From Candidatus Iainarchaeum sp. (GTDB taxonomy: Archaea; Iainarchaeota; Iainarchaeia; Iainarchaeales; JACQJH01): DNA of 32,000 bases. The DNA lies in contig JACQJH010000002.1 of assembly GCA_016205145.1 (NCBI GenBank), positions 330,001 through 362,000 of the forward strand, read 5' to 3'. The translations under genes and the position numbers were made by a program. Of the stretch, positions 4,838-32,000 are shown piece after piece (position 1 is the stretch's first letter; each line of letters opens with the position of its first letter). The notes under the pieces are model-generated. The model worked only from the letters and a program-made list of their open reading frames with translations. It was not told the origin of the DNA and did not search any database.

Positions 4838-6143
4838 TCAAATCAACCTCTTCTGGCCCCTGTGACAGGGCCGCGGCAATCTTTTTGCGTTTTCCGAAAA
4901 CGAACAGCAGTACAAGCAGGGCTGCAAGGATTGCCGCAATGCCGAGCAGAATGCCGTTGTCGAAAGGCGCCGGCGCTTCGGAAATGCCCGCGGAATAAAC
5001 GTCGGCAACGTCTTTTTTGGATTTTTCAGCGTACGCCAATGCGAGATCGTATTTTCCGCTTTTCAGGAAAACCTGGGTTTTCGCCCAGTCATCCTTCAAT
5101 TGCGCCACCCCTGCTTGGTCCGCCCACAAAAACTCGTTTTCTTCTGCCAGGACTATTGCAATGGCGCCTGAAAGCGAGGAAAATTCCGGCCGCGTTTTTT
5201 TCACCAAAGCGTCGTCCCTGCCGTTTATGGCCTTGAGCGCGGAGCTTTTCTTCACCCTGGTTTCAAGCTTCGATGCGAAAAGCAGTGACTTGGAGTCCGC
5301 GTCGTCAAAAGAATCCGAAATCCTCTGCTTCAAAGAAACCGCGATATTTGAAAACGACGGCAGCCTGCGCGTCTCGTCCGGTGCCTGCAAAAGATTGCTT
5401 ATGCTCGTCTTTTCCTCGATTGACAGGCCGGTCGAGGCGACGGCCTGCTTGAGCTTGTCGGCATCATCAAGGTACGCCTGGACCGCGTCATTGAACGCGA
5501 AAAAACCGGAAAACGACGAGTCAAAATTTTCGCGCAATTTGTCAATGGAATTCGTGTCGGGCGATTCGAAGAATTCGCGGCGCCTCTGTTCCGTTTCAAA
5601 AAAGCCGCTGCCCGTCGAGGAAGCCAGGGAAACAAGCGAGTCAAGCCTGCCCGCAAGCCTGCCCGCGTCGGCCTCCACTGCAGGATAGCCTGCCAAAACT
5701 GATTTGGCGGTGAGAATGTCGGATTTCTCGTTCCTGAGCGAATCGGCGAAAGAATCGAAAAACTTGACGTTGATGTCGTCAAAAAGCCAGCCGCTTGACT
5801 GCGCGTCAAAAGACTGCTTTGTCTCAAGGACCGACCTCAAAACGAATGCGGTGCGCAGAAGCTCCCTGCGCAGGAAACCGCTTTCAGGGATTTTCGGATC
5901 CTTTTCATCGGACAACGGAATGAAATCCGAAACCGAGCCGTTCTCCAAAACCGCGGCAACCCAGTAATTGCGCCCCGCGCTTGCAACCGTGGTTTCAGGC
6001 AGTATCTGTGCCTGCTCGCCAGAATCCAGGAGACTCTCCGACCGGACAAAATTCAGCACGTCCTTGGATGAAAGCACGGAAGCCGAGGCGAAAACTGCAA
6101 AGCCCAGGACAAGCAAAAACGCCAATGCAACGCGTGAGCGCAT
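4815..6143 (-). CDS. Secreted, C-terminally anchored hypothetical protein
   Basis: ORF 4815..6161. ATG at 6143 (MRSRVALAFLLVLGFAVFASA) lies about 25-30 nt downstream of a TATA-like box (rc CTTTATTAATAC). C-terminal TM is GILLGIAAILAALLVLLFVF. It overlaps the downstream gene by 23 nt. Confidence 0.6.
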   Translation of the reverse strand: MRSRVALAFLLVLGFAVFASASVLSSKDVLNFVRSESLLDSGEQAQILPETTVASAGRNYWVAAVLENGSVSDFIPLSDEKDPKIPESGFLRRELLRTAFVLRSVLETKQSFDAQSSGWLFDDINVKFFDSFADSLRNEKSDILTAKSVLAGYPAVEADAGRLAGRLDSLVSLASSTGSGFFETEQRRREFFESPDTNSIDKLRENFDSSFSGFFAFNDAVQAYLDDADKLKQAVASTGLSIEEKTSISNLLQAPDETRRLPSFSNIAVSLKQRISDSFDDADSKSLLFASKLETRVKKSSALKAINGRDDALVKKTRPEFSSLSGAIAIVLAEENEFLWADQAGVAQLKDDWAKTQVFLKSGKYDLALAYAEKSKKDVADVYSAGISEAPAPFDNGILLGIAAILAALLVLLFVFGKRKKIAAALSQGPEEVDLNEGNPHY

Positions 6144-6243
6144 GAAATACAAGAAAGGCAATTTGTATTAATAAAGGTTTATTGGCGCCCTTGCACTGCC
6201 GGAAAAACCAATAAAAACCCAACCGCGCACTCTTTTACCTGTC

Positions 6244-6568
6244 GGGGTCATGGGGTAATGGCAGCCCGATAGGCTCCAGAGGGCCCTTTTTCTTTCTTGC
6301 GAAGAAAGAAAAAGTGCTCCAGCCCAAAAAGAAAGAAAACTTTTCTTTTATGGTTGGGGTTTTTGTCTTTGGAGCGACGAGTCCGCGATGCGGGCGATGA
6401 CGAGCTACAGGTACTACGAGTTTTGCAGAAGCGAAACGATGACAACAAAAAAAGCGTGATTCGGCCGGCAGAGGGTTCGAGCATTGCGAGGACCCTCAAC
6501 TTCGCACTCGCCGGGCGATGACGGCGCGGGGTGACCTGTAGGTCTGGGTTCGATTCCCAGTGATCCCA
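6244..6568 (+). tRNA. tRNA-Trp (CCA) interrupted by a 254-nt intron at the canonical 37/38 site
   Basis: Exons are 6244-6279 and 6534-6568. Stems are acceptor GGGGTCA/TGATCCC, D GGGT/GCCC and anticodon ATAGG/CCTGT. The anticodon loop is CTCCAG|A and the T arm is CTGGG-TTCGATT-CCCAG. A BHB-like motif forms when CTCC (nt 32-35) pairs with GGGG 6528-6531, flanked by 3-nt bulges AG|A and TG|A. Confidence 0.8.
6280..6533 (+). ncRNA. tRNA-Trp intron carrying box C/D-like guide elements
   Basis: Guide 6370-6375 (TGGAGC) is complementary to tRNA nt 31-36, and guide 6405-6412 (CTACAGGT) to nt 38-45. Each is followed by ACGAG. CGAUGAC boxes lie at 6395, 6437 and 6516. There is a 13-bp perfect hairpin at 6286-6314. 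Confidence 0.5.
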
Positions 6569-6570
6569 AA

Positions 6571-6600
6571 GGCGGAGGGGGCTCCGCCCCCCAATTTTTT
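6571..6600 (+). terminator. GC hairpin plus T6 tract after tRNA-Trp
   Basis: GGCGGAG-gggg-CTCCGCC is followed by CCCAATTTTTT. Oligo-T tracts are the usual archaeal termination signal. Confidence 0.45.
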
Positions 6601-6632
6601 GCGAAACCAAGGTTTTGGAAAATTTGAAAACA

Positions 6633-6664: not shown

Positions 6665-7225
6665 ATGTCACGGCATCTCGCCAAGCGCGTTGAGGAAATT
6701 TCGAAAGAGTTTGCGCGCAAGAATGAGGTCAAGCTCAGGATGATTGCGAACCGCACATTGAGCCAGGCCGTGCTGTCCAACGACATGATTTTGGCGGAAA
6801 TCGCGCTCATCGCCTATTGTTTGCACAAGCTTTCGGTCAAGGAGCATGTCGTGAAGAACCCTAAATGGAAGATTGCGCGCCAGCAGATTCTTTCAAACCT
6901 TTCCTCCGCGGCGTATGCGGTGAAAGGCGAGGACCTCAGGCCGTTTGTGCGGCAGCTTGACTTCACGGTAACGCGCATTGAGGCCATTGACACCAGGCTC
7001 GGCCATTTTGCGGTGAACCTTTTCGATCGGGCCAGGGTCAAGCTTGCGTCCGATGCCTATTCGCTGGGGCTGTCATTGAGCAGGGCGGCCGAGCTCACGG
7101 GCTGTGACAAGCGCAAATTGCAGGAATACATCGGCATCACGAAAATGCATGACGAGGAAGGCGAAACTTTCGGCATTGGCGAAAGGCTTGACTCGCTTGA
7201 AACTGCATTGGCAGGTGCACAATAA
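6665..7225 (+). CDS. Hypothetical protein with C-terminal HTH-like segment
   Basis: ORF of 186 aa with its own TATA-like box. LSLSRAAELTGCDKRKLQEYIG resembles a helix-turn-helix. Its stop overlaps the next start (TAATG). Confidence 0.55.
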   Translation: MSRHLAKRVEEISKEFARKNEVKLRMIANRTLSQAVLSNDMILAEIALIAYCLHKLSVKEHVVKNPKWKIARQQILSNLSSAAYAVKGEDLRPFVRQLDFTVTRIEAIDTRLGHFAVNLFDRARVKLASDAYSLGLSLSRAAELTGCDKRKLQEYIGITKMHDEEGETFGIGERLDSLETALAGAQ

Positions 7226-7902
7226 TGGCAAAACCGGAAATCGTCTTCGATTCAAGCACAATCATCGCGGTTTCGAACAGCTGCATAATAAACATCCTCG
7301 GCGCGCTCAGAAAAAGCACTGGTGCCGGTTTTGTCATTCCGTCTGGAGTCGAATATGAGACCGTCACAAGGCCGGTTGCAATAAAAAAATTCGAGCTCAA
7401 CGCCGTGCGGATAAGGCGTGCCATCGGCTCCGGCGTCTTCGAGGTCGACCGGCAGAACCTTTCCAGCCTGAACGAAAAAATCGCCGGGCTGGCGAACAAC
7501 TCGTTTTTTGCGGGAAGCAATCCTATTGAGCTCATCCAGCTTGGGGAGATTGAAAGCCTGTCGCTGATCCTTAAAAGGAAGGCGAAGGCGCTTGCCATAG
7601 ACGAAAGGACCGCGAGGATGCTTGTCGAAGACCCGAAAGGCCTGAAGTCCCTGATGGAAAAAAGGCACGGCGTCAGGCTCAGCGCCGACTGGCAGAAACT
7701 CGACGAGCTGCGCGAAATGTTTTCCGGCATAACCATTGTTAGGTCAACCGAGCTTGTGGCAATGGCTTTCAGGCGCGGCCTGTTCCAGCCGGAACTGGAG
7801 CAGTCGCGGCAGGGCCTTGAAGCCGCATTGTTTGCCGTGAAATTCAACGGCTGCGCAGTTACGACGCCGGAAATAGAAAAGTTTGTGGCTGGTGCAAAAT
7901 GA
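7225..7902 (+). CDS. PIN-like domain protein (putative nuclease fold)
   Basis: The N-terminal IVFDSSTIIAV, then GEIESL and LAIDERTAR, give the D...E...D acidic pattern of PIN domains. It is translationally coupled to both neighbours. Confidence 0.45.
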   Translation: MAKPEIVFDSSTIIAVSNSCIINILGALRKSTGAGFVIPSGVEYETVTRPVAIKKFELNAVRIRRAIGSGVFEVDRQNLSSLNEKIAGLANNSFFAGSNPIELIQLGEIESLSLILKRKAKALAIDERTARMLVEDPKGLKSLMEKRHGVRLSADWQKLDELREMFSGITIVRSTELVAMAFRRGLFQPELEQSRQGLEAALFAVKFNGCAVTTPEIEKFVAGAK

Positions 7903-8420: not shown

Positions 8421-9926
8421 TCAATAGCTTTTCGCAAAATACGCCTTTTTTTCCGCGCGCTTTCCGCACACAACGCACTTTCCGCCGGAAGGCTTTTGGC
8501 CGAATGGGACGCAGCGGCTTGACGCGGTTGTTTCCGCCTTGATTTTTTCCTCGCAATCCCTTGACATGCAGAATGGCGCCAGAACCATTTTTTTTGCTTC
8601 AAGCGCCTTCACAAGTTCGGGGTGCGATGACGCTTCGCAGGTGTTTTCCTTCAAAAACCTTTGCGCGTTTTTGAGCAGGCATTCCTGCATTTCAGCAAGC
8701 GCTTTTTCCGCTTCCGCGGCGATGGCGGAGACGCTGACAAACTCTTTTTTGCCCGTGTCGCGCCGGACAATGACCGCCTGCTTTTTTGCCATGTCCTTGG
8801 GGCCGATTTCAATGCGCAAAGGAATCCCCTTCAGCTCCCATTCGTTGAATTTCCATCCCGGCGAATAGCCTTCGCGGTCGTCAAGAACCGGGTTGAGCGA
8901 TGCGAGCTTTTTTTCAAGCTCCTTCGCCGCCGCCAGAACCTTTTCCTTGTCCGTGTCGAAATAAATGGGCACAATGACGCACTTGTTGAACGCAACATTT
9001 GGCGGAAGCACAAGGCCCTTGTCGTCGGAGTGCACCATTATGGTTGCGCCAATCAGCCTTGTTGTGAAGCCCCACGAATTCTGCCAGGCAAAATGGCTTT
9101 CCTTGTCCTTTCCGAGAAATGAAATGCCGAACGCCCTTGCAAAATTCTGCCCGAGATTGTGCGAGGTGCCCATCTGCAACGCCTTCCCGTCAGGCATCAG
9201 CGCCTCGATAGTGAAAGTCTGCTTTGCGCCCGCAAATTTCTCCGACTCGGTTTTTTCGCCGGTAATGACGGGAATTGCAAGCAGTTGCCCGCACAATTCC
9301 CGGTATTCCTCCAAAAACATCAGAGCTTCCTTCACGCACTCTTCCTCTGTTTCGTAGACGCAGTGGCCTTCCTGCCACAGGAATTCCCTTGTGCGCAGGA
9401 AAAGCTTTGTCTGCTTGACCTCCCAGCGCAGAATGTTGCACCACTGGTTGAGGCGCAGGGGCAAATCGCGCCACGAGCGAATCCACTTGGAATATGCGTC
9501 GTACATTATGGTTTCGGACGTCGGCCTGATCGCAACCCTTTCACCCGAGCCTTCCTTTCCCTCGACCCACGCAAGCTCGGGGGCAAAGCCTTCCGCGTGC
9601 TCGGCTTCCTTTGAAAAAAACGATTCCGGAATCAGCAAGGGAAAGTACGCGTTCAAAACGCCTTTTGCCTGGATGACTGCGTTGAATCGGTCCTGAATTT
9701 TCTGCCACACCATGTAAGCGCGCGGCCTCACAATCATGAAGCCGGCTACCGGCGCGTAATCCGCAAGCTCGGCCTTGAGCACGACCTCGTTGTACCAGTC
9801 CGAAAAGTTTTCGGACTTTTTTACGGTCATGCCCTCGGTGTTTTTAGCGTTCTCAGAAGCCTTGCCGCCCGCCATGGCTTTTGCATCGTTGCCGTGGATT
9901 TTTTCCTTTCCAGCCATTCCAATCAC
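8421..9926 (-). CDS. proS: Prolyl-tRNA synthetase, archaeal/eukaryotic type (no INS editing domain)
   Basis: Begins NFSDWYNEVVLKAEL. It has a class II core (FLRTREFLWQEGH) and a C-terminal Zn-type domain ending AYFAKSY. The maximal ORF starts at GTG 9926 (GTGA overlap with proB). ATG 9917, or ATG 9830 preceded by GAGG, are alternatives. Confidence 0.9.
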   Translation of the reverse strand: MIGMAGKEKIHGNDAKAMAGGKASENAKNTEGMTVKKSENFSDWYNEVVLKAELADYAPVAGFMIVRPRAYMVWQKIQDRFNAVIQAKGVLNAYFPLLIPESFFSKEAEHAEGFAPELAWVEGKEGSGERVAIRPTSETIMYDAYSKWIRSWRDLPLRLNQWCNILRWEVKQTKLFLRTREFLWQEGHCVYETEEECVKEALMFLEEYRELCGQLLAIPVITGEKTESEKFAGAKQTFTIEALMPDGKALQMGTSHNLGQNFARAFGISFLGKDKESHFAWQNSWGFTTRLIGATIMVHSDDKGLVLPPNVAFNKCVIVPIYFDTDKEKVLAAAKELEKKLASLNPVLDDREGYSPGWKFNEWELKGIPLRIEIGPKDMAKKQAVIVRRDTGKKEFVSVSAIAAEAEKALAEMQECLLKNAQRFLKENTCEASSHPELVKALEAKKMVLAPFCMSRDCEEKIKAETTASSRCVPFGQKPSGGKCVVCGKRAEKKAYFAKSY

Positions 9927-10720
9927 TTCAGGAAAAGCGTTCCGTTCTGCCTGCCAGAAAAAATTTTTCCAAGCGCGCCGGTTTCGCCTTTCGTAATGAT
10001 TAGGGGAATCCCCTTTTTTAAAACGATTTTCGCGGCCTGCATTTTGGTTTCAAAGCCGCCCCTGCCCAAAGCGGATTTCCCTTTCAGCGATGCCCCGACT
10101 TTTGAAATGTCGGAAACCACTGGAATGATTTTCGCGTCGCCGTTCGTCAAGGGATTCTTGTCATACAGGCCATCCACATTCGTGAAAATTACAAGCAAAT
10201 CAGCTTTCAGGTGCACTGCCACGAGCGCGGACAAAACGTCGTTGTCGGAAAAAGCCTTTTTCGATGCAAGCTCTTCGACAGCCACGGCGTCATTTTCGTT
10301 TACGACCGGCACTACGCCGAGCCTGAGAAGCTCCCCGAAAGTGTTTTTCAGGTTTTTCAAAGCTTTCCGGTTGTCAAAGTTGTGCTGGGTAAGCAGGATC
10401 TGCGCTATTTTAAGCCCCGGCTTTGAAAACGCCTTGCCGAATTCGCGCATCAGGATTTTCTGGCCCACCGCCGCAACCGCCTGCTGCAATGGAACGGGCA
10501 TGGGCTTTCCGTTCAGGCCAAGCTCCTGCGCGCCCAAACCGATTGCGCCGCTTGAAACAATGACGAATTTCCTGCCATTGGCACTCTGCTCCGCAATGGT
10601 CTGCGCAAGGCCCTCCGCAAAAGAAAAATTGAATGAGCCGTTCTCGACCGCAACCTGCGTGCCAAGCTTGAGCACGACAAGCCTTGCGCCCGCAAAATCG
10701 TTAAACTTGCGCACAGTCAT
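9923..10720 (-). CDS. proB: Glutamate 5-kinase (short form, no PUA domain)
   Basis: Has the amino-acid-kinase N-terminus VVLKLGTQV and the VIVSSGAIGLG motif. It has an ATGA overlap with proA. Confidence 0.85.
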   Translation of the reverse strand: MTVRKFNDFAGARLVVLKLGTQVAVENGSFNFSFAEGLAQTIAEQSANGRKFVIVSSGAIGLGAQELGLNGKPMPVPLQQAVAAVGQKILMREFGKAFSKPGLKIAQILLTQHNFDNRKALKNLKNTFGELLRLGVVPVVNENDAVAVEELASKKAFSDNDVLSALVAVHLKADLLVIFTNVDGLYDKNPLTNGDAKIIPVVSDISKVGASLKGKSALGRGGFETKMQAAKIVLKKGIPLIITKGETGALGKIFSGRQNGTLFLK

Positions 10721-11970
10721 TCCCTCACCTGGCCGTGGCCTTCAACTATAAACTTCACAGAAGTCAACTCCTTCAGCGCAAACGGCCCCCTGCAATGCAG
10801 CTTCTGAGTCGAGATGCCCATCTCCGCGCCCAGGCCGAAAACGCCGCCGTCAGTGAAACGCGTGCTTGCGTTGGCGTAAACCGCCGCCGAATCAACGTTG
10901 GCCAGGAATTTGCGGATATTTTTTTCGTCCCCTGAAACAATCGAATCCGAATGGTGCGTGCCATGCGCATTGATGTGCGCAATCGCCTCGTCAACGCTTC
11001 CGACCTGCCTGACGGCAAGAATCAGGTCCAGGAATTCGGTATCGTAATCCTTCGCCTTCGCAGCCTTCACTCCGGCAAGGCCCTTAAGCAACGCCAAAGA
11101 TTTTTTGTCAACGCGCAGTTCAACGCCTTTTTCCAGCAATGCCTTCGCAGCAACGGGCAGGAAAGACCGGGCAATTTTTTCGTGCACAAGCAGTGATTCC
11201 ATGGCGTTGCAGACCGAGGGCCTCTGCGTCTTCGCATTCACGCAAATCCTGACAGCCGAAGCAGTGTCCGCGCTTTCGTCGACGAAAACATGGCATATTC
11301 CGGAACCGGTTTCAATTACGGGCACACGCGAATTTTCGACGACAAAGCTGATGAGCTTTGCTCCGCCACGCGGAATAATCAAATCAACCATGCCGCGCGC
11401 GTCGAACATTTTTTTTACCGCCCCATGCCCGGCCTCGCCGAACAATTGCACGCTGCCGTCAGGCAGGCCGGCTGAAGAGATTGCCTTGCGCATCACTTCA
11501 ACGATTTTCCTGTTCGAATTTATCGTCGAAGACGAGCCGCGCAGAATGACCGCGTTCCCGGATTTCAGGCACAGCACCGCCGCATCAACCGCAACGTTCG
11601 GCCTCGCCTCAAAAATCATGCCAATCACACCCAAAGGCACGCGCACCTTTCTGATGTGCAGGCCGCCTTTCTGCGAGTAATCCTCCAAAACTTCCCCGAC
11701 CGGGTCCGGCAGGACAACGATGTCATTGATTGAATCCGCAATCGCCGCAACCCTCTTTTCGTCCAGAGACAGCCTGTCAACCAGGGAATTCGAATCGCCC
11801 CGCTTTCGCGCAGCCCTGACATCCAGTGAGTTGGCCGCAAGAATCGCCTTTTCATTTTCCCGCAACGCACGCGCAACTGCCTTGAGCGCGCTGTTTTTTT
11901 GTTCCGTTGACGCCTGGGCCAAGGCAAAAGCCGCTTTTCTCGCGGCACGCGCAATTTTTCCGAACGTCAT
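10717..11970 (-). CDS. proA: Gamma-glutamyl phosphate reductase
   Basis: Contains IFEARPNV and the catalytic-Cys context CNAMESLLVH. Length is 417 aa. It has an ATGA overlap with proC. Confidence 0.9.
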   Translation of the reverse strand: MTFGKIARAARKAAFALAQASTEQKNSALKAVARALRENEKAILAANSLDVRAARKRGDSNSLVDRLSLDEKRVAAIADSINDIVVLPDPVGEVLEDYSQKGGLHIRKVRVPLGVIGMIFEARPNVAVDAAVLCLKSGNAVILRGSSSTINSNRKIVEVMRKAISSAGLPDGSVQLFGEAGHGAVKKMFDARGMVDLIIPRGGAKLISFVVENSRVPVIETGSGICHVFVDESADTASAVRICVNAKTQRPSVCNAMESLLVHEKIARSFLPVAAKALLEKGVELRVDKKSLALLKGLAGVKAAKAKDYDTEFLDLILAVRQVGSVDEAIAHINAHGTHHSDSIVSGDEKNIRKFLANVDSAAVYANASTRFTDGGVFGLGAEMGISTQKLHCRGPFALKELTSVKFIVEGHGQVRE

Positions 11971-12764
11971 TCTCCCAGCTCCCTGGAACGCCTGACAGCC
12001 GCAAAAACCGCTTCCCTCAGCTTTTCACGCACGCCCGCATCCTGCAAAACCTTCAATCCGGCCTCGGTCGTTCCGCCCCTGCTTGCAACCATTGCAATCA
12101 AATCACCGGCGGACAGATTCTTTTCAAGCAGGATTCTGCCTGTGCCAAGCATTGTCTGCCCTGCAAGCAGCCGCGCCTCATTCTCGGACAGGCCGGATTC
12201 AACCGCGGCCTCGCAGAACGCCTGCATTGCAAACGCGAAAAAAGCGGGGCCGCTTCCGGACAAAGCCGTGACCGCGTCAATTTTTTCCTCGGCAACCTCG
12301 ACGATTTTCCCGCAGCTGCCGAACAGGAATTCGACAAGCTTCCTGTCTTTCACCGTGGCCTTTCCCCCAAGCGAATAAGCTGCCGCCATCTCCTGCACAA
12401 GGCAGTTCACGTTCGGCATGACGCGCACGACACGCGCACCGGAAAGCCTCGGCTCGATGAACGCAATGCCTTTGCCCGCGCAAATCGAAATGACAAGATG
12501 CTTTCCGGAAACCGCCCCGGAAATTTCATCCAGGACTCCGGCAAGGTTCTGCGGCTTGACCGATAAAACCACGACAGACGATTTTCCTGCAAGCTCAACG
12601 TTCGACGAAACCGCATTGCACTTCACTGCTTTCTTGAACGCGCCAAGCCTTTTCGCGTCCACGTCGCTGGCAAGAATGTCCTTGGCATGGCACCGCTTGC
12701 CGGCAACAAAGCCTTTCGCCAGGGCCTCAGCCATTTTTCCCGCGCCAATGAAACCGATCTTCAT
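11967..12764 (-). CDS. proC: Pyrroline-5-carboxylate reductase
   Basis: Contains the Rossmann motif IGFIGAGKMAEAL and the C-terminal SRGGTTEAGL motif. A TATA-like box (rc AAAAATAAAAG) lies about 26 nt upstream of the ATG. Confidence 0.9.
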   Translation of the reverse strand: MKIGFIGAGKMAEALAKGFVAGKRCHAKDILASDVDAKRLGAFKKAVKCNAVSSNVELAGKSSVVVLSVKPQNLAGVLDEISGAVSGKHLVISICAGKGIAFIEPRLSGARVVRVMPNVNCLVQEMAAAYSLGGKATVKDRKLVEFLFGSCGKIVEVAEEKIDAVTALSGSGPAFFAFAMQAFCEAAVESGLSENEARLLAGQTMLGTGRILLEKNLSAGDLIAMVASRGGTTEAGLKVLQDAGVREKLREAVFAAVRRSRELGE

Positions 12765-12808
12765 CGCACAACACTTTGCATTCCATTGCTTTTATTTTTT
12801 TGCATGCA

Positions 12809-12882
12809 TGGGAGAGAGGAGATTCGAACTCCTGTCGCTGCCACCCCAAGGCAGTATACTGACCAGGCTATACTACTCCCCC
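12809..12882 (-). tRNA. tRNA-Pro (GGG)
   Basis: The reverse complement folds with acceptor GGGGGAG/CTCTCCC, anticodon stem CTGCC/GGCAG, loop TTGGGGT and T arm AGGAG-TTCGAAT-CTCCT. The discriminator is A and no CCA is encoded. Confidence 0.85.
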
Positions 12883-12900
12883 TCGCCGACACGTCCGCAG

Positions 12901-12958
12901 CCGATTTCGTCCGGCTGGTCCGACGACGGGTACACCGCTGCGCGCTGTACCCATCTGC
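12901..12958 (+). repeat. 58-nt two-hairpin element, copy 2
   Basis: Same orientation as 3773-3830. The five differences fall in loops or flank, or form a compensatory pair (G:C at 3806/3818 becomes A:T at 12934/12946). It lies 18 nt upstream of the tRNA-Pro(GGG) 5' end on the minus strand. Confidence 0.7.
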
Positions 12959-13033
12959 GCTGTTAATTTGACTCATCACGCACCCTACAAAAACCCTGCA
13001 CGCGTGGTATCGCAATGCGATACCACAAGGCTC

Positions 13034-13064
13034 CACACGCGCGAGCAGGCGCGTTGGGGCTGCC
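13034..13064 (-). pseudogene. Duplicated fragment of the tRNA-Pro(UGG) 3' end plus its trailer hairpin
   Basis: CACACGCGC-N6-GCGCGTTGGGGCTGCC at 13034-13064 matches 13163-13193 (25/31). Only the 6-nt hairpin loop differs. No complete cloverleaf can be folded around it. Confidence 0.5.
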
Positions 13065-13183
13065 GGCTTCAAACGCAGGGGGCTCCGCCCCCTCGCACGC
13101 CCCTGAAACATTTAATACTGGCCTACTCGGCGTGTCGCATCGGCGGCACGCCTTGGTTTCGGCACACGCGCCCGAAAGCGCGT

Positions 13184-13258
13184 TGGGGCTGCCCGGATTT
13201 GAACCGGGGTCGCCAACTCCCAAAGCTGGTATCCTGGACCAGGCTAGACTACAGCCCC
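13184..13258 (-). tRNA. tRNA-Pro (UGG)
   Basis: The reverse complement folds with acceptor GGGGCTG/CAGCCCC, anticodon stem CCAGC/GTTGG, loop TTTGGGA and T arm CCCGG-TTCAAAT-CCGGG. The discriminator is A. Confidence 0.88.
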
Positions 13259-18206: not shown

Positions 18207-19541
18207 ATGGCTGTCAAGGACCTGCTGAAAAAGCACGGGCTCAAAGAATCCGATCTGGTTGAAATAGCCAGTGGCAAAACCGTCCTGAAAGGCACGATCA
18301 TTCCGAGCAAAAACCCGGAAATACTCGAACTGAAGCTTTCAAGCGGCTACAATGCAGGCATCATCGCAAAGGAAATTTCCGGGATAAAGAAGCTGGGCGA
18401 AGGCAAAAGCGTTTCGAAAGCCAAAACGCAAAGCTTTCCACAAAAACCCGGCCTGCCCAGAATCGCAATCCTGCACACCGGCGGAACGATTGCAAGCCGC
18501 GTGGACTACAGGACGGGTGCGGTCTTTTCAAGCTTCCAGACCGAGGACCTGCTGACGATGTTTTCCGAACTGCACGCAATCGCGAACATTTCATCCGAGC
18601 ACCTTTCAAACATGTGGTCCGAGGACATGCGCTTTGACCATTACAAAATCATGGCGAAAGCCGTCGAAAAGGAAGTGAAAAAAGGCGTTGACGGAATCAT
18701 CATCGCGCATGGCACTGACACGATGCATTATTCCTCGGCCGCATTGGCATTCGCATTGGAAAACGTTCCGGTCCCGGTCATACTTGTAGGAGCACAGCGC
18801 AGTTCGGACAGGGGCTCAAGCGATGCCGCCATGAACCTGGTCTGCGCCGCAACATTCATGGCAAAAACCGATTTTGCGGGAGTCGCAATCTGCATGCACC
18901 ACTCCGCGTCGGACGACAGCTGTGCAATCCTGCCTGCATGCAAGACAAGGAAAATGCACACTTCCCGCAGGGACGCGTTCAAGGCGGTCAACGGAAAGCC
19001 AATAGCGCTTGTCGACTTCAGGTCAAGGAACGTCGAGTTCATCGAAAAAAATTTTGCGAAAAAGGGTGCCGGAAAGCTCGCTGTCAAGGACAAGTTCGAG
19101 GAAAAGACCGGCATTTTGAAGGCGCACACCAACATGTTCGCTGAAGAAATAGACTTTTACAGGAAGCAAAAATACAAGGGCCTTATCCTGGAAGGCTTTG
19201 CTCTTGGCCAGTTCCCGATTGCTGCGCCGAACCCGCAGGCGAAAAAAAACCTTGAAGTGAAAAAGGCGCTTGAAAAGCTCATCAAATCCGGCTGCGTTGT
19301 CGTTATGGCCTCGCAGTGCATTTTCGGGCGCGTCCATATGCACGTTTACGACAAGGCGGTTGACCTGCAGAACATGGGCGTGGTTCCGGCGGAGGACATG
19401 ACATCCGAAACCGCGTTCATAAAGCTTGCATGGCTTTTGGGCAATTATCCGAAAAAAGAGGTTGCCGCCCTGGTCGGCAAAAATCTGCGCGGCGAAATAT
19501 CAGACAGGACGGAATTCGAGGAACAATTTCCGGGGGACTGA
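18207..19541 (+). CDS. gatD: Glutamyl-tRNA(Gln) amidotransferase subunit D
   Basis: Has an asparaginase-like core with ILHTGGTIAS and AHGTDTM motifs and an archaeal GatD-type N-terminal extension. Length is 444 aa. Confidence 0.9.
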   Translation: MAVKDLLKKHGLKESDLVEIASGKTVLKGTIIPSKNPEILELKLSSGYNAGIIAKEISGIKKLGEGKSVSKAKTQSFPQKPGLPRIAILHTGGTIASRVDYRTGAVFSSFQTEDLLTMFSELHAIANISSEHLSNMWSEDMRFDHYKIMAKAVEKEVKKGVDGIIIAHGTDTMHYSSAALAFALENVPVPVILVGAQRSSDRGSSDAAMNLVCAATFMAKTDFAGVAICMHHSASDDSCAILPACKTRKMHTSRRDAFKAVNGKPIALVDFRSRNVEFIEKNFAKKGAGKLAVKDKFEEKTGILKAHTNMFAEEIDFYRKQKYKGLILEGFALGQFPIAAPNPQAKKNLEVKKALEKLIKSGCVVVMASQCIFGRVHMHVYDKAVDLQNMGVVPAEDMTSETAFIKLAWLLGNYPKKEVAALVGKNLRGEISDRTEFEEQFPGD

Positions 19542-20906: not shown

Positions 20907-20998
20907 GCAAATAATAGACTCTTAAGAGATTAATAAAAACCGACCCAAACAAGTTTCAATTAAAAGGCTTTTCCTGCCAATTTTTTTCTGGTTTGCCG

Positions 20999-22888
20999 AT
21001 GGAAACTGATTTGCAGAACCCCGGCCTGAAATGCGGCCTCGAAGTGCATCAGCAGCTTGACACAGGAAAGCTGTTCTGCAGGTGCCCGTCGGTGCTCAGG
21101 GACTACAAGCCCGATTTTTCCGTGAGAAGGAAGCTGAGGCCGGTCGCATCAGAACTCGGCGAATTCGACCTGGCCGCATTGGAGGCATTCAGGAAAAACC
21201 TCGAATTCGTTTACGAGGGCTACAACGACACGACCTGCCTCATAGAGCTTGACGACGAGCCGCCGAAAGCCGCGGACAAGGATGCGCTTGAAACGGTTTT
21301 GAAAATCTGCATCATGGCTGGCGCGGACATTCTTGACGAGGTCATTGTCATGCGCAAAACCGTGATTGACGGCTCGAACACTTCCGGTTTCCAGCGCACG
21401 ATGCTCGTTTCCCTGGGCGGAAAATTGAAACTGAAAAACAAGGAGCTCGGCATCCAGACCATTGCTTTGGAGGAGGATGCCTGCAGGCCGTCGCAGAAAA
21501 CCGGCAGCGAGGTTTTTTACAGGCTCGACAGGCTCGGCATTCCCTTGATAGAGCTTGCCACGGAGCCAGGCATAAAGTCGCCGGAAGAGGCCAGGGAAGC
21601 CGCATTGAAGATCGGCGAGCTTTTCCGCAGGACGTGCAAGGCGAGGCGCGGCCTCGGCACGATTAGACAGGACCTGAACATTTCGATTGCCGAAGGGGCG
21701 AGGGTTGAAATCAAGGGAGTGCAGAACCTTGATTTGATGGACGAATTCGTGCGAAGGGAAATCCTGCGCCAGCAGAATCTCATCGAACTGCGCGAACAAC
21801 TCCTGATGCTCGGCGTTTCCGAAGAGGATTTTGCGCTTCCCCCTGAGGACATCACGCCTATTTTTGCCGGAACCAATTCGGGGCTGCTGAAAAAAAGCCT
21901 TGAAAAAGGCGAAAGCATTCTTGCAATCAGGTTCCCGAAAATGGTGGGCCTGCCGGGAATGGAACTGCAGCCGAACCGCAGGTTCGGCACGGAACTGTCA
22001 GACCATGTCAAGGCGAAAGCTGGGTTGCATGGCCTGATGCATTCCGACGAATTGCCCGCTTACGGCATTTCGCACGAAGAGGTTTCGGAAATAAGGAGAA
22101 CGCTTGGCTGTTCCGAACACGACGCATTCGCATTCGTGGTCGGCCAAAAGGAAAAATGCGTTTCCGCCTTGCAGGCTGTTTCGGAAAGGTGCGTTCAGGC
22201 GCTGAAAGGCGTGCCCGAAGAAACGCGCAACGCATTGGATGACGGGAACACTTCCTACAGCAGGCCTCTGCCGGGCGCCGCAAGGATGTATCCTGAAACG
22301 GACATTGCGCCTGTCCGAGTTGACAAAAAATTGCTGAAAGAACTTGAAAAAGACCTGCCATTGACGGTTGAAGAGCGCCTGGACCTTTACAAAAAGCGCG
22401 GCCTGAGCGGCAAGCTTGCGAACGAAATGGGGCTTGACAATTTCGCGGCCTTTTTCGAATCATTGCTGAAAAAAGGCTTCAATGCAACAACCGCGGCAGT
22501 GTTCCTGCTCGAAGGCCTGACACAGCTGAGGCGCGAAGGCCTTTCCGTCGACGGCATTTCAAATGAAACGATTGAAAAAATTTTGTCGGCGGAAAAATCC
22601 GGAAAAATCCTGAAAGACGATCTGCTTGAAACCGCCCGAAGCGTGCTGCAGGGCAAAAGCCTCGATGGCGCGGTCAGGGAAAAGGCGGACGGCAAAGCGG
22701 GAAACAAAGAAATAGAGGAAGCGGTCAAAAGGATTGTTGAACGGAATGCCTTGCTCATCAAGGAAAAGGGAACCGGCGCGTTCGCCGCGCTCATGGGCGA
22801 CGCTATGAAAGAGCTTGGCGGAAAAGCGTCCGGAAAGGACATTTCAGAGGCGTTGAAAAGGGAGCTGCGGAAAAATGCCGGAACCTGA
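20999..22888 (+). CDS. gatE: Glutamyl-tRNA(Gln) amidotransferase subunit E
   Basis: Begins GLKCGLEVHQQLDTGKLFCRCPS, the GatB/E signature. It has the GatE-specific insertion and length. ATG 20999 is preferred over TTG 20993. Confidence 0.9.
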   Translation: METDLQNPGLKCGLEVHQQLDTGKLFCRCPSVLRDYKPDFSVRRKLRPVASELGEFDLAALEAFRKNLEFVYEGYNDTTCLIELDDEPPKAADKDALETVLKICIMAGADILDEVIVMRKTVIDGSNTSGFQRTMLVSLGGKLKLKNKELGIQTIALEEDACRPSQKTGSEVFYRLDRLGIPLIELATEPGIKSPEEAREAALKIGELFRRTCKARRGLGTIRQDLNISIAEGARVEIKGVQNLDLMDEFVRREILRQQNLIELREQLLMLGVSEEDFALPPEDITPIFAGTNSGLLKKSLEKGESILAIRFPKMVGLPGMELQPNRRFGTELSDHVKAKAGLHGLMHSDELPAYGISHEEVSEIRRTLGCSEHDAFAFVVGQKEKCVSALQAVSERCVQALKGVPEETRNALDDGNTSYSRPLPGAARMYPETDIAPVRVDKKLLKELEKDLPLTVEERLDLYKKRGLSGKLANEMGLDNFAAFFESLLKKGFNATTAAVFLLEGLTQLRREGLSVDGISNETIEKILSAEKSGKILKDDLLETARSVLQGKSLDGAVREKADGKAGNKEIEEAVKRIVERNALLIKEKGTGAFAALMGDAMKELGGKASGKDISEALKRELRKNAGT

Positions 22889-27154: not shown

Positions 27155-27227
27155 TAGCCCTGGAGAGATTCGAACTCCCGTCTTCGGGTCCAAAGCCCGA
27201 CATCCTTGGCCGCTAGACTACAGGGCT
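27155..27227 (-). tRNA. tRNA-Gln (UUG)
   Basis: The reverse complement folds with acceptor AGCCCTG/CAGGGCT (A1:U72), anticodon stem TCGGG/CCCGA, loop CTTTGGA and T arm GGGAG-TTCGAAT-CTCTC. Confidence 0.88.
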
Positions 27228-30265: not shown

Positions 30266-32000
30266 CTATTTGAGCAGTTTGGCGAATTTTTCCCCGAGCT
30301 GCTTTGCGTCGGCCTTTCCGCGCAGTTCGCGCATCGCCAATCCGACCAGGAAGTTCAAGGCCTTTTCCCCGCCATTTTTGTAGTCTGCCGCGGCGGCAGG
30401 GTTTGCCGCGACAACCCTTGCTATTGCCGCATCAACATCCCCCGAGCCGGCGTCCTTCAGCAAATCGTTCTTTTTGAGGAAATCCAGCGGCTCGGCTTTT
30501 TCATTGACGTACGCAATCATCGCTTCCTTGGCGTTCTTTTCTGAAACTTTTCCCTGTTCGAGCAGGCGCAGTAGCCCCGCAATCTTGGCTGGTTCAAGGT
30601 TCAGCCGCTTCAGGTCTAGGCCCGAGCGGTTTGCGATTGCAAGAAGCTCGCGAGTCAGGAAAGAGGCTGCAAGCTTTGGCTCAACGCCTTTCGCTGTTTC
30701 CTCGAACAGCCTTCCAAGCGTTGCGTCGGATGAAAGCACTTTTGCCGTATAATCGTCCAATCCGAATTCCCTGCCGAAGCGCCCCGCCTTATTGGAATGC
30801 AGTTCCGGCAGGCCTTTCTTGATTTCATGCAGTTCCGCTTCCAAAACAACGGTTTTGACCAGGTCGGAATCAAAAATATAGCCGTAGTCGTCCTCGGTTT
30901 CCTTCAGCCTCAGCCTTTTCGTCACAAGGCCTTTCTCGTCAAACGACCTTGTTTCCCTTTCAACTTTTTTCCCCGCTGACAGAACCTTTCTCTGCCTCGC
31001 AATCTCGAATTCTAGGGCCTTTTCGACAAACCGGAAGCCGGAAATGTTCTTGACTTCGACGCGCTCGGAACCCTCGATTGAGGCGTTCGAATCGACTTTC
31101 AAAGTGTTCTTTCCCTGCTCGAAAACTTCCAGGTATTCGAGCATTTTGAGCAGTTCGTCCAGGAATTCGCGCGTTTCCTCCGGCTTTCCGAAATCCGGTT
31201 CCGTGACAATCTCGCACAGCGGAATGCCGGAACGGTTGTAGTCGATAAGGGAATAGGCCGAGCCGTGAATGCCGCCCTCGTGCACCAATGCCGCGGGATC
31301 CTCTTCCAGGTGGATGCGCCTTATGCGGATGGTTTTGCCGGATGGCAGCTTTACACTGCCGTTCTCCCCGACCGGAATCTCGAACTGCGTTATCTGGTAG
31401 TCCTTCGCCAGGTCGGGATAAAAGTATGTCTTGCGGCTGAAAAAAAATTCATTGTTGACCCTGCAGCCCAGTGCAAGGCAAAGCTTCAATGCAAAGTCGA
31501 CGGCTTTCCTGTTCAGGACCGGCTTGCTGCCCGGCATGCCAAGACAGGTTTCACAGCAATGCGAATTCGGCTCAGCTTCGGCAGTGGAACAGCCGCAGAA
31601 AAGCTTTGACTGCGTGTCCAGCTGCACGTGCACTTCTAGGCCCATGACTGGCGCGGGCCCGGAAACCTGTTCAACCGAATAATTGTCAACTGCATTGAGC
31701 AGTTTTTGCGGCGCAATTATTATGCCCGCGGTTTCAATTCCGGCATTGAAGCTTATCTCATTGTTTGAAAACAATGGTTTGTCGAAAATTTTTTTCACGC
31801 CATCAATCACGGGCGGGACGAGGCCTACAACGCAGCCGGTGTGCTTTTCGACTTCCTCGGAACTTGCAAGCCGGACAAGCTTTGCATTCGCGATTTGCAC
31901 CAGCCTTTTCTCGTCAACGCTCCGGTCACCGGACAGGACAACCAGCAACGGCTTTCCGTCCACGATGTACAGCAGGGTCTTGGCAATCTGCCTGAGCTGC
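30266..32000 (-). CDS. gatB: YbaK/ProX-like aminoacyl-tRNA editing domain fused in frame to Asp/Glu-tRNA amidotransferase subunit B (5' end outside window)
   Basis: The reading frame is open from the window edge (QLRQIAKTLLYIVDGKPLLVVLSGDRSVDEKRL...EEVEKHTGCVVGLVPP...ISFNAGIE, a tRNA_edit/YbaK pattern). It continues into the GatB core (MGLEVHVQLDTQSKLFCGCS...) and the C-terminal GatB/YqeY tail, with no stop codon between the two parts. Confidence 0.8.
   Translation of the reverse strand, partial: QLRQIAKTLLYIVDGKPLLVVLSGDRSVDEKRLVQIANAKLVRLASSEEVEKHTGCVVGLVPPVIDGVKKIFDKPLFSNNEISFNAGIETAGIIIAPQKLLNAVDNYSVEQVSGPAPVMGLEVHVQLDTQSKLFCGCSTAEAEPNSHCCETCLGMPGSKPVLNRKAVDFALKLCLALGCRVNNEFFFSRKTYFYPDLAKDYQITQFEIPVGENGSVKLPSGKTIRIRRIHLEEDPAALVHEGGIHGSAYSLIDYNRSGIPLCEIVTEPDFGKPEETREFLDELLKMLEYLEVFEQGKNTLKVDSNASIEGSERVEVKNISGFRFVEKALEFEIARQRKVLSAGKKVERETRSFDEKGLVTKRLRLKETEDDYGYIFDSDLVKTVVLEAELHEIKKGLPELHSNKAGRFGREFGLDDYTAKVLSSDATLGRLFEETAKGVEPKLAASFLTRELLAIANRSGLDLKRLNLEPAKIAGLLRLLEQGKVSEKNAKEAMIAYVNEKAEPLDFLKKNDLLKDAGSGDVDAAIARVVAANPAAAADYKNGGEKALNFLVGLAMRELRGKADAKQLGEKFAKLLK

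Follow-up and report, generated by a model that had tools for sequence, protein, structure and literature searches.

The intron of the tryptophan tRNA precursor (pre-tRNA-Trp) carries a box C/D dual guide in the euryarchaea Haloferax volcanii and Pyrococcus (PMC4090602, PMC11408192, PMC3326292), and the Haloferax guide methylates positions 34 and 39 of the tRNA, C34 and U39 (PMC4090602, PMC3326292). The Haloferax intron is a stable circle (PMC4090602, PMC3326292), and in Sulfolobus solfataricus a 65-nucleotide (nt) tRNA-Trp intron without consensus boxes keeps both complementarities and likewise forms a stable circular RNA (PMC3326292). Closed or rearranged non-coding RNAs are known beyond this family, as in the permuted circular C/D box small RNA (sRNA) sRNA24 of Nanoarchaeum equitans (PMC3491384) and the permuted signal recognition particle (SRP) RNA of Thermoproteus, which is restored by bulge-helix-bulge (BHB) cleavage and circularisation (PMC4731332). 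Here we describe a related locus in the genome of a Diapherotrites archaeon, Candidatus Iainarchaeum sp., analysed in a window of 32,000 nt (positions 330,001 to 362,000 of contig JACQJH010000002.1, numbered below from the first letter of the window). The locus is a tRNA-Trp(CCA) gene with a 254-nt BHB intron that we read, at a probability of roughly 0.68, as carrying a permuted box C/D-type dual guide (6366-6445) for C34 and C39.

A preliminary description made from the DNA letters had proposed a tRNA-Trp gene with an intron at the canonical site, and ARAGORN agrees when introns are allowed: it reports tRNA-Trp(CCA) at 6244-6568 with the intron 6280-6533 between nucleotides 37 and 38, finds the gene in the relatives L011 and L001 introduced below as well, and joins the exons without 6280-6533 into a 71-nt cloverleaf. 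The proposed BHB is present in both the window and L001, where the motif is identical: a 4-bp helix (CUCC with GGGG) lies between the 3-nt bulges AG/A and UG/A, and the splice sites (slashes) fall inside the bulges. The outer helix on the anticodon-stem side has 5 bp. That on the intron side, described as 6281-6285 with 6523-6527, forms four of its five pairs in the window and is weak in L001, where scattered pairs only are left; endonucleases of DPANN archaea with insert loops reportedly accept relaxed motifs (PMC5829648). Cloverleaf restoration, the 37/38 site and the BHB together confirm an archaeal BHB tRNA intron. A permissive finder also returned many low-quality nested or second BHB motifs, none of them conserved between lineages except the canonical one.

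The gene is easily overlooked. Neither ARAGORN at default settings nor the Rfam tRNA covariance model detected a tRNA-Trp at 6244-6568, so that genomes of this kind seem to be without tRNA-Trp and automated annotation would probably list this one accordingly; incomplete tRNA sets have been noted in DPANN lineages (PMC5829648). A compensatory change in the acceptor stem, from U5-A68 in the window to C5-G68 in L001, supports a working tRNA gene at the locus. A minus-strand open reading frame (ORF) of 120 aa at 6248-6610 is spurious: the lineages differ by indels whose lengths are not divisible by three, and the related contigs have no gene call at this place.

The comparison covers two lineages and one strain variant: the window, the strain variant (L011) and a second lineage (L001-L003). 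The ORF downstream of the tRNA is 98% identical in L011 and 83% identical in L001-L003 (three assemblies), the next relatives reaching at most 48%, and tRNA-Trp stands at the same place in L011 and L001-L003, with homologous introns of 252 and 217 nt, respectively. No tRNA-Trp adjoins the downstream-ORF homologues of L004-L009 (38-48% identity), and in L016, which has a 95% homologue of the upstream gene, the adjacency to the tRNA is lost. Pattern scans added no further relatives: the 5'-exon pattern had no match in the genome contig collection, the intron-core pattern had only four chance matches there, in GC-rich bacteria, the metagenome scan matched only a contig already in the comparison set, and the viral contig scans matched nothing.

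Within the intron, identity between the window and L001 is distributed very unevenly. It reaches 95% for the U-rich tract with guide 1 and box D', and 96% for box C' with guide 2 and box D, followed by box C (86%), the intron 3' end at the BHB (82%) and hairpin H4 (75%); it falls to 52% in H5, 50% in H2, 47% in the A-rich region, 36% in the 3' remainder, 22% in the interior of H3 and 14% in the intron 5' end with its 13-bp hairpin. On these identities the guides and their boxes are the sole strongly conserved segments of the intron between the two lineages. The secondary structure that we specify for the three sequences (window, L011 and L001, from the two lineages) leaves 98.9% of cells paired, against 42-55% in slid controls, and includes seven pairs that are changed on both sides.

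Such similarity could in principle be no more than recent ancestry, if an ancestral canonical C/D intron of tRNA-Trp had expanded, its boxes had degenerated and its guide had become inactive. The non-consensus boxes, the lineage-specific insertion of ~36 nt (H1) with indels elsewhere, the weak outer helix of the L001 BHB and the absence of further relatives from the genome, metagenome and viral scans would all suit a decaying relic of this kind. However, the rest of the intron is only 14-52% identical, with many indels, between the same two lineages in which guides and boxes retain 95-96%; the same U.U to C.C replacement is carried by both D-type and both C-type boxes; and hairpin pairing persists through substitutions. 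Because guides and boxes are conserved, box changes are concerted and hairpin pairing is maintained, the pattern argues for purifying selection rather than decay, and we consider a relic highly improbable.

The two guides are the centre of the case for a dual guide. As first described, they are complementary to nucleotides 31-36 and 38-45, are placed for C34 and C39 and are each followed by ACGAG, and the pairing, the placement and the ACGA boxes held in the three sequences, so that the check suggested at the time, retention of both complementarities in relatives, is borne out by L011 and L001. In guide 1, TGGAGC (6370-6375) is the exact complement of nucleotides 31-36 and belongs to a 10-bp duplex, with two G.U pairs, that is identical in L001; since the complementarity spans the exon-intron junction, it points to the unspliced precursor as the probable substrate. 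In guide 2, CTACAGGT (6405-6412) is the exact complement of nucleotides 38-45, and the single change in L001, C6405 to U, retains pairing with G45 as G.U. Each guide is followed by ACGAG, and the fifth base upstream of each ACGA (G6372 and G6411) pairs with C34 and C39, respectively, in all three sequences. Duplexes of 10 and 8 bp of this placement are what is expected of C/D guides, in which ~8-12 nt upstream of D or D' pair with the target and the fifth base marks the modified position. When the intron was shuffled 20000 times with dinucleotides preserved, 0.7% of the shuffles had a complement to the anticodon arm of at least 8 nt plus a second of at least 6 nt, box and offset constraints being ignored; the paired complementarity alone is thus moderately unlikely by chance.

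Behind each guide stands a motif able to form a kink-turn (K-turn), whose known layout is a C-stem, a 3-nt bulge and tandem sheared G.A and A.G pairs (PMC5061560, PMC4382518). At the level of sequence and secondary structure, both modules have in all three sequences a C-stem, a 3-nt RAU bulge, G.A and A.G, and then C.C. Module A is the unit ACGA-H3-GAUGACGA, with H3 as its C-stem (G6381-C6395 through C6386-G6390) and a non-canonical stem of G6399.A6380, A6400.G6379, C6401.C6378 and G6402.A6377. Module B is the unit ACGA-H4-GAUGACAA, with G6441.A6419, A6442.G6418 and C6443.C6417. The hairpins that provide the C-stems vary around these fixed bases: H3 has 15 nt in the window versus 21 nt in L001 and a U.G pair of the window is C-G there, and H4 has U-A in L001 for a U.G of the window and keeps seven contiguous pairs despite the sequence differences. 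Over the 64000 positions of the two window strands there are 40 motifs of the form GA-hairpin-NNN-GA, competent to make a K-turn, and two of these 40 lie exactly behind the two guides.

This geometry depends on the register in which the boxes are read. The preliminary description took ACGA as the D-type boxes, a choice supported here, and recognised a C'-like box GCGAUGA at 6394-6400, a string that is present. A reading of the C-type boxes that starts three bases farther downstream fits better, the first GAU being the bulge, which makes the C' box AUGACGA at 6397-6403. The shifted register is preferred because the spacer from C' to D then measures exactly 12 nt in each of the three sequences, because box changes between lineages are then limited to bulge position L1 (G versus A) and position 4b, because U occupies L3 and a purine L2, matching RUGAUGA, and because the recurrence of CGAG (five in the 254-nt intron versus ~4 per kb in the window) is explained. 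Other arrangements were considered and set aside. With the GA of 'CGA' as the sheared pairs no bulge would be left between the hairpins and the G.A pairs, and the C-stems have no other possible register; K-turns built from CGAG/CGAG tandem G.A pairings, or by pairing in trans between the modules, were rejected; and neither H5 nor the 3' hairpin with the third CGAUGAC has a geometry suitable for a kink-loop, the latter element also not being conserved.

The earlier layout as a whole, in which GCGAUGA is box C', an exact copy of GCTCCAG at 6316-6322 acts as a decoy competing for guide 1, and a second C/D unit joins CGAUGAC at 6437 and 6516 to GUGA at 6456 and 6531, fares less well. All of its strings are present at the positions named, and in the window the decoy could form seven pairs with guide 1. 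In its register, however, the hairpins run into G.A with no bulge between, so that a K-turn would not form, the C'-to-D spacer has 15 nt, and a sheared pair would be lost to the G-to-A change of L001 (CAAUGAC); the shifted register removes all three difficulties. Neither the decoy nor the 13-bp hairpin at 6286-6314 occurs in L001, which leaves the decoy role unsupported and the hairpin a lineage-specific feature; the box at 6516 is CGAAAAC in L001, GUGA at 6531 is the end of the BHB, and no evidence supports a second unit. CGAUGAC at 6437 is retained in another role, as box C of the D guide by way of H4 instead of as partner of GUGA at 6456. We regard this layout, taken together, as scarcely credible. 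A permuted order, which had been suggested for the 3' module, does survive, and applies to the core unit itself.

Along the RNA the elements of that core run guide 1-D'-H3-C'-guide 2-D-H4-C, where the consensus linear order is 5'-C, D', C', D-3' with a terminal stem. The core unit is circularly permuted: H4, a capped hairpin, takes over from the terminal stem, and the chain has its opening between box C and guide 1. As already pointed out in the first description, box C is missing upstream of guide 1, and this is true of both lineages. Between box C and guide 1 lie ~175 nt of remaining intron (H1, H2, H5, the 3' hairpin and both splice sites), and since both splice sites are in this insertion, the whole tRNA body is also at that point in the precursor. 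The opening may be bridged by a short closing helix (the P-link) in which six of six pairs are kept in all sequences and G6365-C6446 of the window is U-A in L001; the C-to-D' spacer is interrupted by the ~175 nt, and 11-12 unpaired nt remain if the P-link forms.

If the intron acts as a dual guide, L7Ae would bind both K-turns and a Nop5-fibrillarin dimer would bridge them, methylating the 2'-OH at the base paired to the fifth nucleotide upstream of each D-type box. Guide 1 would select C34, acting on the unspliced precursor, and guide 2 would select C39. After methylation the precursor would refold to its BHB form, the splicing endonuclease would cut and ligation would follow. Excised tRNA introns circularise in other archaea (PMC3326292, PMC7714728), and the excised intron here would probably likewise be closed into a circle, linking box C and guide 1 through one continuous loop. 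The unconstrained minimum free energy (MFE) structures of both precursors form both guide-target duplexes in cis and lie 17-20 kcal/mol below the cloverleaf with BHB in both lineages, which, as a thermodynamic prediction only, would fit an order of methylation before splicing.

The same folds lend themselves to another account, in which the complements act as antisense or chaperone elements without any methylation: they would hold the precursor in a non-BHB fold, timing or gating its splicing or protecting the anticodon loop, and the GA-hairpins would be structural or bound by L7Ae only. That the cis guide-target fold is the MFE structure in both lineages, by the margin just given over the splicing-competent fold, would be expected of such a device, as would non-consensus boxes with no Rfam C/D match, and Haloferax does not need the intron or its methylations in order to grow (PMC4090602). 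The account leaves unexplained, however, why K-turn-competent motifs stand at the exact offset that places C34 and C39 at N+5, why the C'-to-D spacer is exactly 12 nt, and why the box bases are invariant although the intervening hairpins vary. We judge it improbable.

Several observations weigh against a methylation guide. The boxes depart from the consensus RUGAUGA/CUGA, AUGACGA and AUGACAA by one to two mismatches and ACGA, twice, by two; G.A or A.A stands at 4b.4n instead of G-C; and no Rfam C/D family matches the intron of either lineage, whether at the gathering threshold or at E <= 10, so that the covariance check suggested at the outset returned nothing. No C-type box lies upstream of guide 1 in either lineage, including within 12 nt upstream, and the P-link is weak, with 5-7 A/U-rich pairs and, in L011, five A-U pairs. 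Guide 2 begins to pair at N+4, which leaves a single base pair on the D side of the target. The comparison spans two lineages only, and conservation of the boxes is supported by few substitutions. No other C/D-like sRNA gene with canonical or variant boxes was found in the window and all compared loci (~100 kb), where only chance matches inside coding regions appeared, and the 32-kb window contains no gene for fibrillarin, Nop5 or L7Ae.

Published work bears on two of these points. A set of 38 archaeal single-copy marker genes includes fibrillarin and Nop5 (PMC9258230), and both are therefore likely to be present in the genome. As to the boxes, both K-turns have C.C where the consensus has U.U at 3b.3n; ion-induced folding has been tested for all sixteen 3b.3n combinations of a K-turn, those with C at 3b being among the variants that fold in ions alone, and a non-folding G-C variant still folded with L7Ae (PMC4382518).

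The ~175 nt outside the core might instead, or in addition, hold a nested second RNA, that is an independent RNA or protein-binding domain, H5 above all, unrelated to methylation; the idea is compatible with a dual guide in the core. H5 has five pairs changed on both sides between the lineages, and G6491A in L011 turns a U.G pair into U-A, so that on sequence grounds it is clearly under selection for pairing. With the conserved apex of H5, the closing helix kept in H2 and the excess of CGAG noted above, these changes favour such a domain. On the other side, the segment has no Rfam match, conservation outside H5 and H2 is poor and an indel of 36 nt is tolerated, and no conserved single-stranded stretch is fit for a further guide. 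We see only a slim chance for a nested RNA. The apex of H5 (L001 ~5809-5835), C-GAGC-AWW-GCGA-G with tandem G.A flanked by C-G and G-C, resembles the GGAGC-GA-CGAG of guide 1 and D', perhaps because of an old duplication within the intron or because it serves to bind a protein. In the third-CGAUGAC hairpin, L001 has a different stem with the loop GUCGAAAA.

H1, by its absence from L001, is not a conserved functional part of the intron. Its arms, CUUUUUCUUUCUU and AAGAAAGAAAAAG, repeat the polypurine arm AAAAAGAAAGAAAA of the neighbouring H2 (window 6286-6339), and this repetition suggests that the insertion stems from low-complexity sequence that was duplicated or inverted locally.

The dual guide with which we started can be taken one step further. 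The RNA may be a permuted C/D RNA whose open point, between box C and the D' guide, holds the tRNA exons, the tRNA body thus being a spacer insertion, so that endonuclease and ligase would mature the tRNA and a closed guide together. H2 and H5 would then be no mere filler and would form a new accessory ribonucleoprotein (RNP) domain, and AUGACGA/ACGA, with C.C at 3b.3n, a lineage-specific flavour of K-turn invisible to standard C/D finders. We hold this fuller version to be doubtful; were it true, the C/D guides of these DPANN archaea would have been systematically missed.

The coordinates of all features are collected in Table 1.

Table 1. Features of the tRNA-Trp locus, followed by those of the proline cluster, with positions in the window.
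Feature	Position	Strand	Basis or remark
Putative promoter, conserved upstream stretch (38 nt) with TATA-like AATAAAAA at 6211-6218	6206-6243	+	Conservation
tRNA-Trp 5' exon, nt 1-37; anticodon CCA at 6276-6278	6244-6279	+	ARAGORN, introns allowed
BHB central helix, 5' strand CUCC (nt 32-35), pairs with GGGG 6528-6531; bulges 6278-6280 and 6532-6534	6274-6277	+	Sequence; kept in L001
Intron, 254 nt, canonical 37/38 site	6280-6533	+	ARAGORN; homologous introns in L011 and L001-L003
H1, perfect 13-bp hairpin, part of the ~36-nt indel that also creates GCTCCAG 6316-6322	6286-6314	+	In window and L011, absent from L001
H2, hairpin closed by CCCAA/UUGGG, variable interior	6323-6358	+	Closing helix in all three sequences; interior covaries
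P-link, U-rich strand of closing helix, pairs with 6445-6451	6360-6366	+	6/6 pairs kept in all sequences
Guide 1, UCUUUGGAGC; in the unspliced precursor, 10 contiguous pairs with G31-G37 and intron A6280-G6282; C34 lies opposite G6372	6366-6375	+	
D' box, variant ACGA (consensus CUGA)	6377-6380	+	Invariant in three sequences; its GA pairs with G6399-A6400
H3, 6-bp hairpin, C-stem of K-turn A	6381-6395	+	Six contiguous pairs in each of the sequences
Bulged strand of K-turn A, with bulge G-A-U at 6396-6398 and box C' AUGACGA at 6397-6403 (consensus RUGAUGA)	6396-6403	+	Invariant in three sequences
12-nt spacer with guide 2, CUACAGGU (6405-6412); 8 pairs with A38-G45; G6411 pairs with C39	6404-6415	+	
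D box, variant ACGA	6416-6419	+	Invariant in three sequences
H4, 7-bp hairpin, C-stem of K-turn B, starts at G6420-C6437; replaces the terminal stem of an ordinary C/D RNA	6420-6437	+	
K-turn B bulged strand: bulge G-A-U 6438-6440 (A-A-U in L001), box C AUGACAA 6439-6445 (AUGACGA in L001)	6438-6445	+	
P-link, A-rich strand	6445-6451	+	Pairs with 6360-6366
H5, 8-bp stem, conserved apical GAGCAWWGCGA (tandem G.A, 2 bp, 3-nt loop)	6471-6497	+	
Local hairpin, loop with third CGAUGAC	6510-6525	+	Box not conserved
tRNA-Trp 3' exon, nt 38-73; CCA not encoded	6534-6568	+	ARAGORN, introns allowed
Trailer hairpin 6571-6588, then six-T run 6595-6600	6571-6600	+	Read from sequence
Prolyl-tRNA synthetase	8421-9926	-	
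Amino-acid kinase (ProB-like)	9923-10720	-	
Aldehyde dehydrogenase (ProA-like)	10717-11970	-	
Pyrroline-5-carboxylate reductase	11967-12764	-	
tRNA-Pro(GGG)	12809-12882	-	
tRNA-Pro(UGG)	13184-13258	-	

The flanks of the gene carry candidate expression signals. The upstream stretch (6206-6243) is identical in the window, L011 and L001, and the DNA farther upstream diverges; from this conservation we infer an archaeal promoter or other expression signal. The tRNA of L001 is likewise trailed by a G/C hairpin and a T-run, so that 6571-6600 is likely to be a termination signal. A strain-level rearrangement breakpoint lies at ~6195-6205, directly upstream of the putative promoter: L011 (1-100) has unrelated DNA upstream and retains the tRNA and the downstream genes, and L016 (1-472) retains the upstream gene (95%), followed by unrelated DNA without the tRNA. 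On the 3' side of the tRNA (6665-7902) is a three-gene unit: its products are a protein of 186 aa that matches nothing in Pfam, one of ~225 aa that faintly matches DUF3368, and a GNAT acetyltransferase, and among the relatives compared (L001 and L004-L009) this unit is intact in distant Diapherotrites even where the adjoining tRNA is absent.

Elsewhere in the window, the minus strand at 8421-13258 carries a 'proline' cluster whose ORFs overlap by 4 nt. A GatB-type protein (GatB_N and GatB_Yqey; 30266-31963, minus strand) has an N-terminal aminoacyl-tRNA editing domain (YbaK-like, PF04073), possibly an unusual fusion, and GatD (18207-19541), GatE (20993-22888) and a tRNA-Gln(UUG) (27155-27227) lie in the same window.

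Compared with the known systems, the locus stands nearest to the Haloferax and Pyrococcus introns, with which it shares the tRNA-Trp(CCA) host, the 37/38 site, two guides to positions 34 and 39 of the host tRNA, the placement of the position-34 guide upstream of the position-39 guide, and guide-bound and BHB folds that are mutually exclusive. It differs from them in size, the introns of 254, 252 and 217 nt falling outside the range of ~60-105 nt and that of the window being, at 2.4 times the 103-105 nt of Haloferax (PMC7714728, PMC3326292), unusually long, as the preliminary description had remarked. The boxes also differ, AUGACGA/AUGACAA and ACGA standing in place of RUGAUGA and CUGA, and both K-turns have hairpin-capped C-stems. 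The Haloferax intron guide, studied by Clouet d'Orval in 2001 and Singh in 2004, reportedly has a canonical box order, whereas here box C comes downstream of D (D'-C'-D-C). A further ~175 nt of structured RNA separate box C from guide 1, and the host is a DPANN archaeon.

This architecture is instructive in itself, combining non-consensus boxes with a concerted change from U.U to C.C, capped K-turns, a permuted order, and one spacer of 12 nt with another that tolerates ~175 nt. If the RNA is active, it constrains the real requirements of the L7Ae-Nop5-fibrillarin machine. Searches for C/D RNAs that rely on RUGAUGA/CUGA would overlook guides in these lineages.

The remaining systems each share one theme with the locus. 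The Sulfolobus solfataricus intron, like this one, has no consensus C/D boxes and retains the two stretches complementary to positions 34 and 39; neither variant boxes that form K-turns nor a permutation has been described in it, whereas variant boxes with K-turn geometry are identifiable here. Nanoarchaeum equitans sRNA24 also comes from a DPANN archaeon and has box D upstream of box C in its gene, the order being restored only in the circle. It is, however, a free-standing gene with an unknown route to circularisation, whereas here the permuted unit lies within a tRNA intron and BHB splicing would close the circle, in which box C and guide 1 would still be ~175 nt apart. The Thermoproteus SRP RNA offers another permuted non-coding RNA that owes its functional connectivity to the tRNA-splicing machinery, although there the permutation concerns the gene order of the SRP RNA halves and here a guide RNA inside a tRNA intron. 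The locus thus combines themes of these known systems and is a variant of the known tRNA-Trp intron guide, not a new category; it suggests that the 34/39 guide of the tRNA-Trp intron, known in Euryarchaeota and hinted at in Sulfolobus, also occurs in Diapherotrites.

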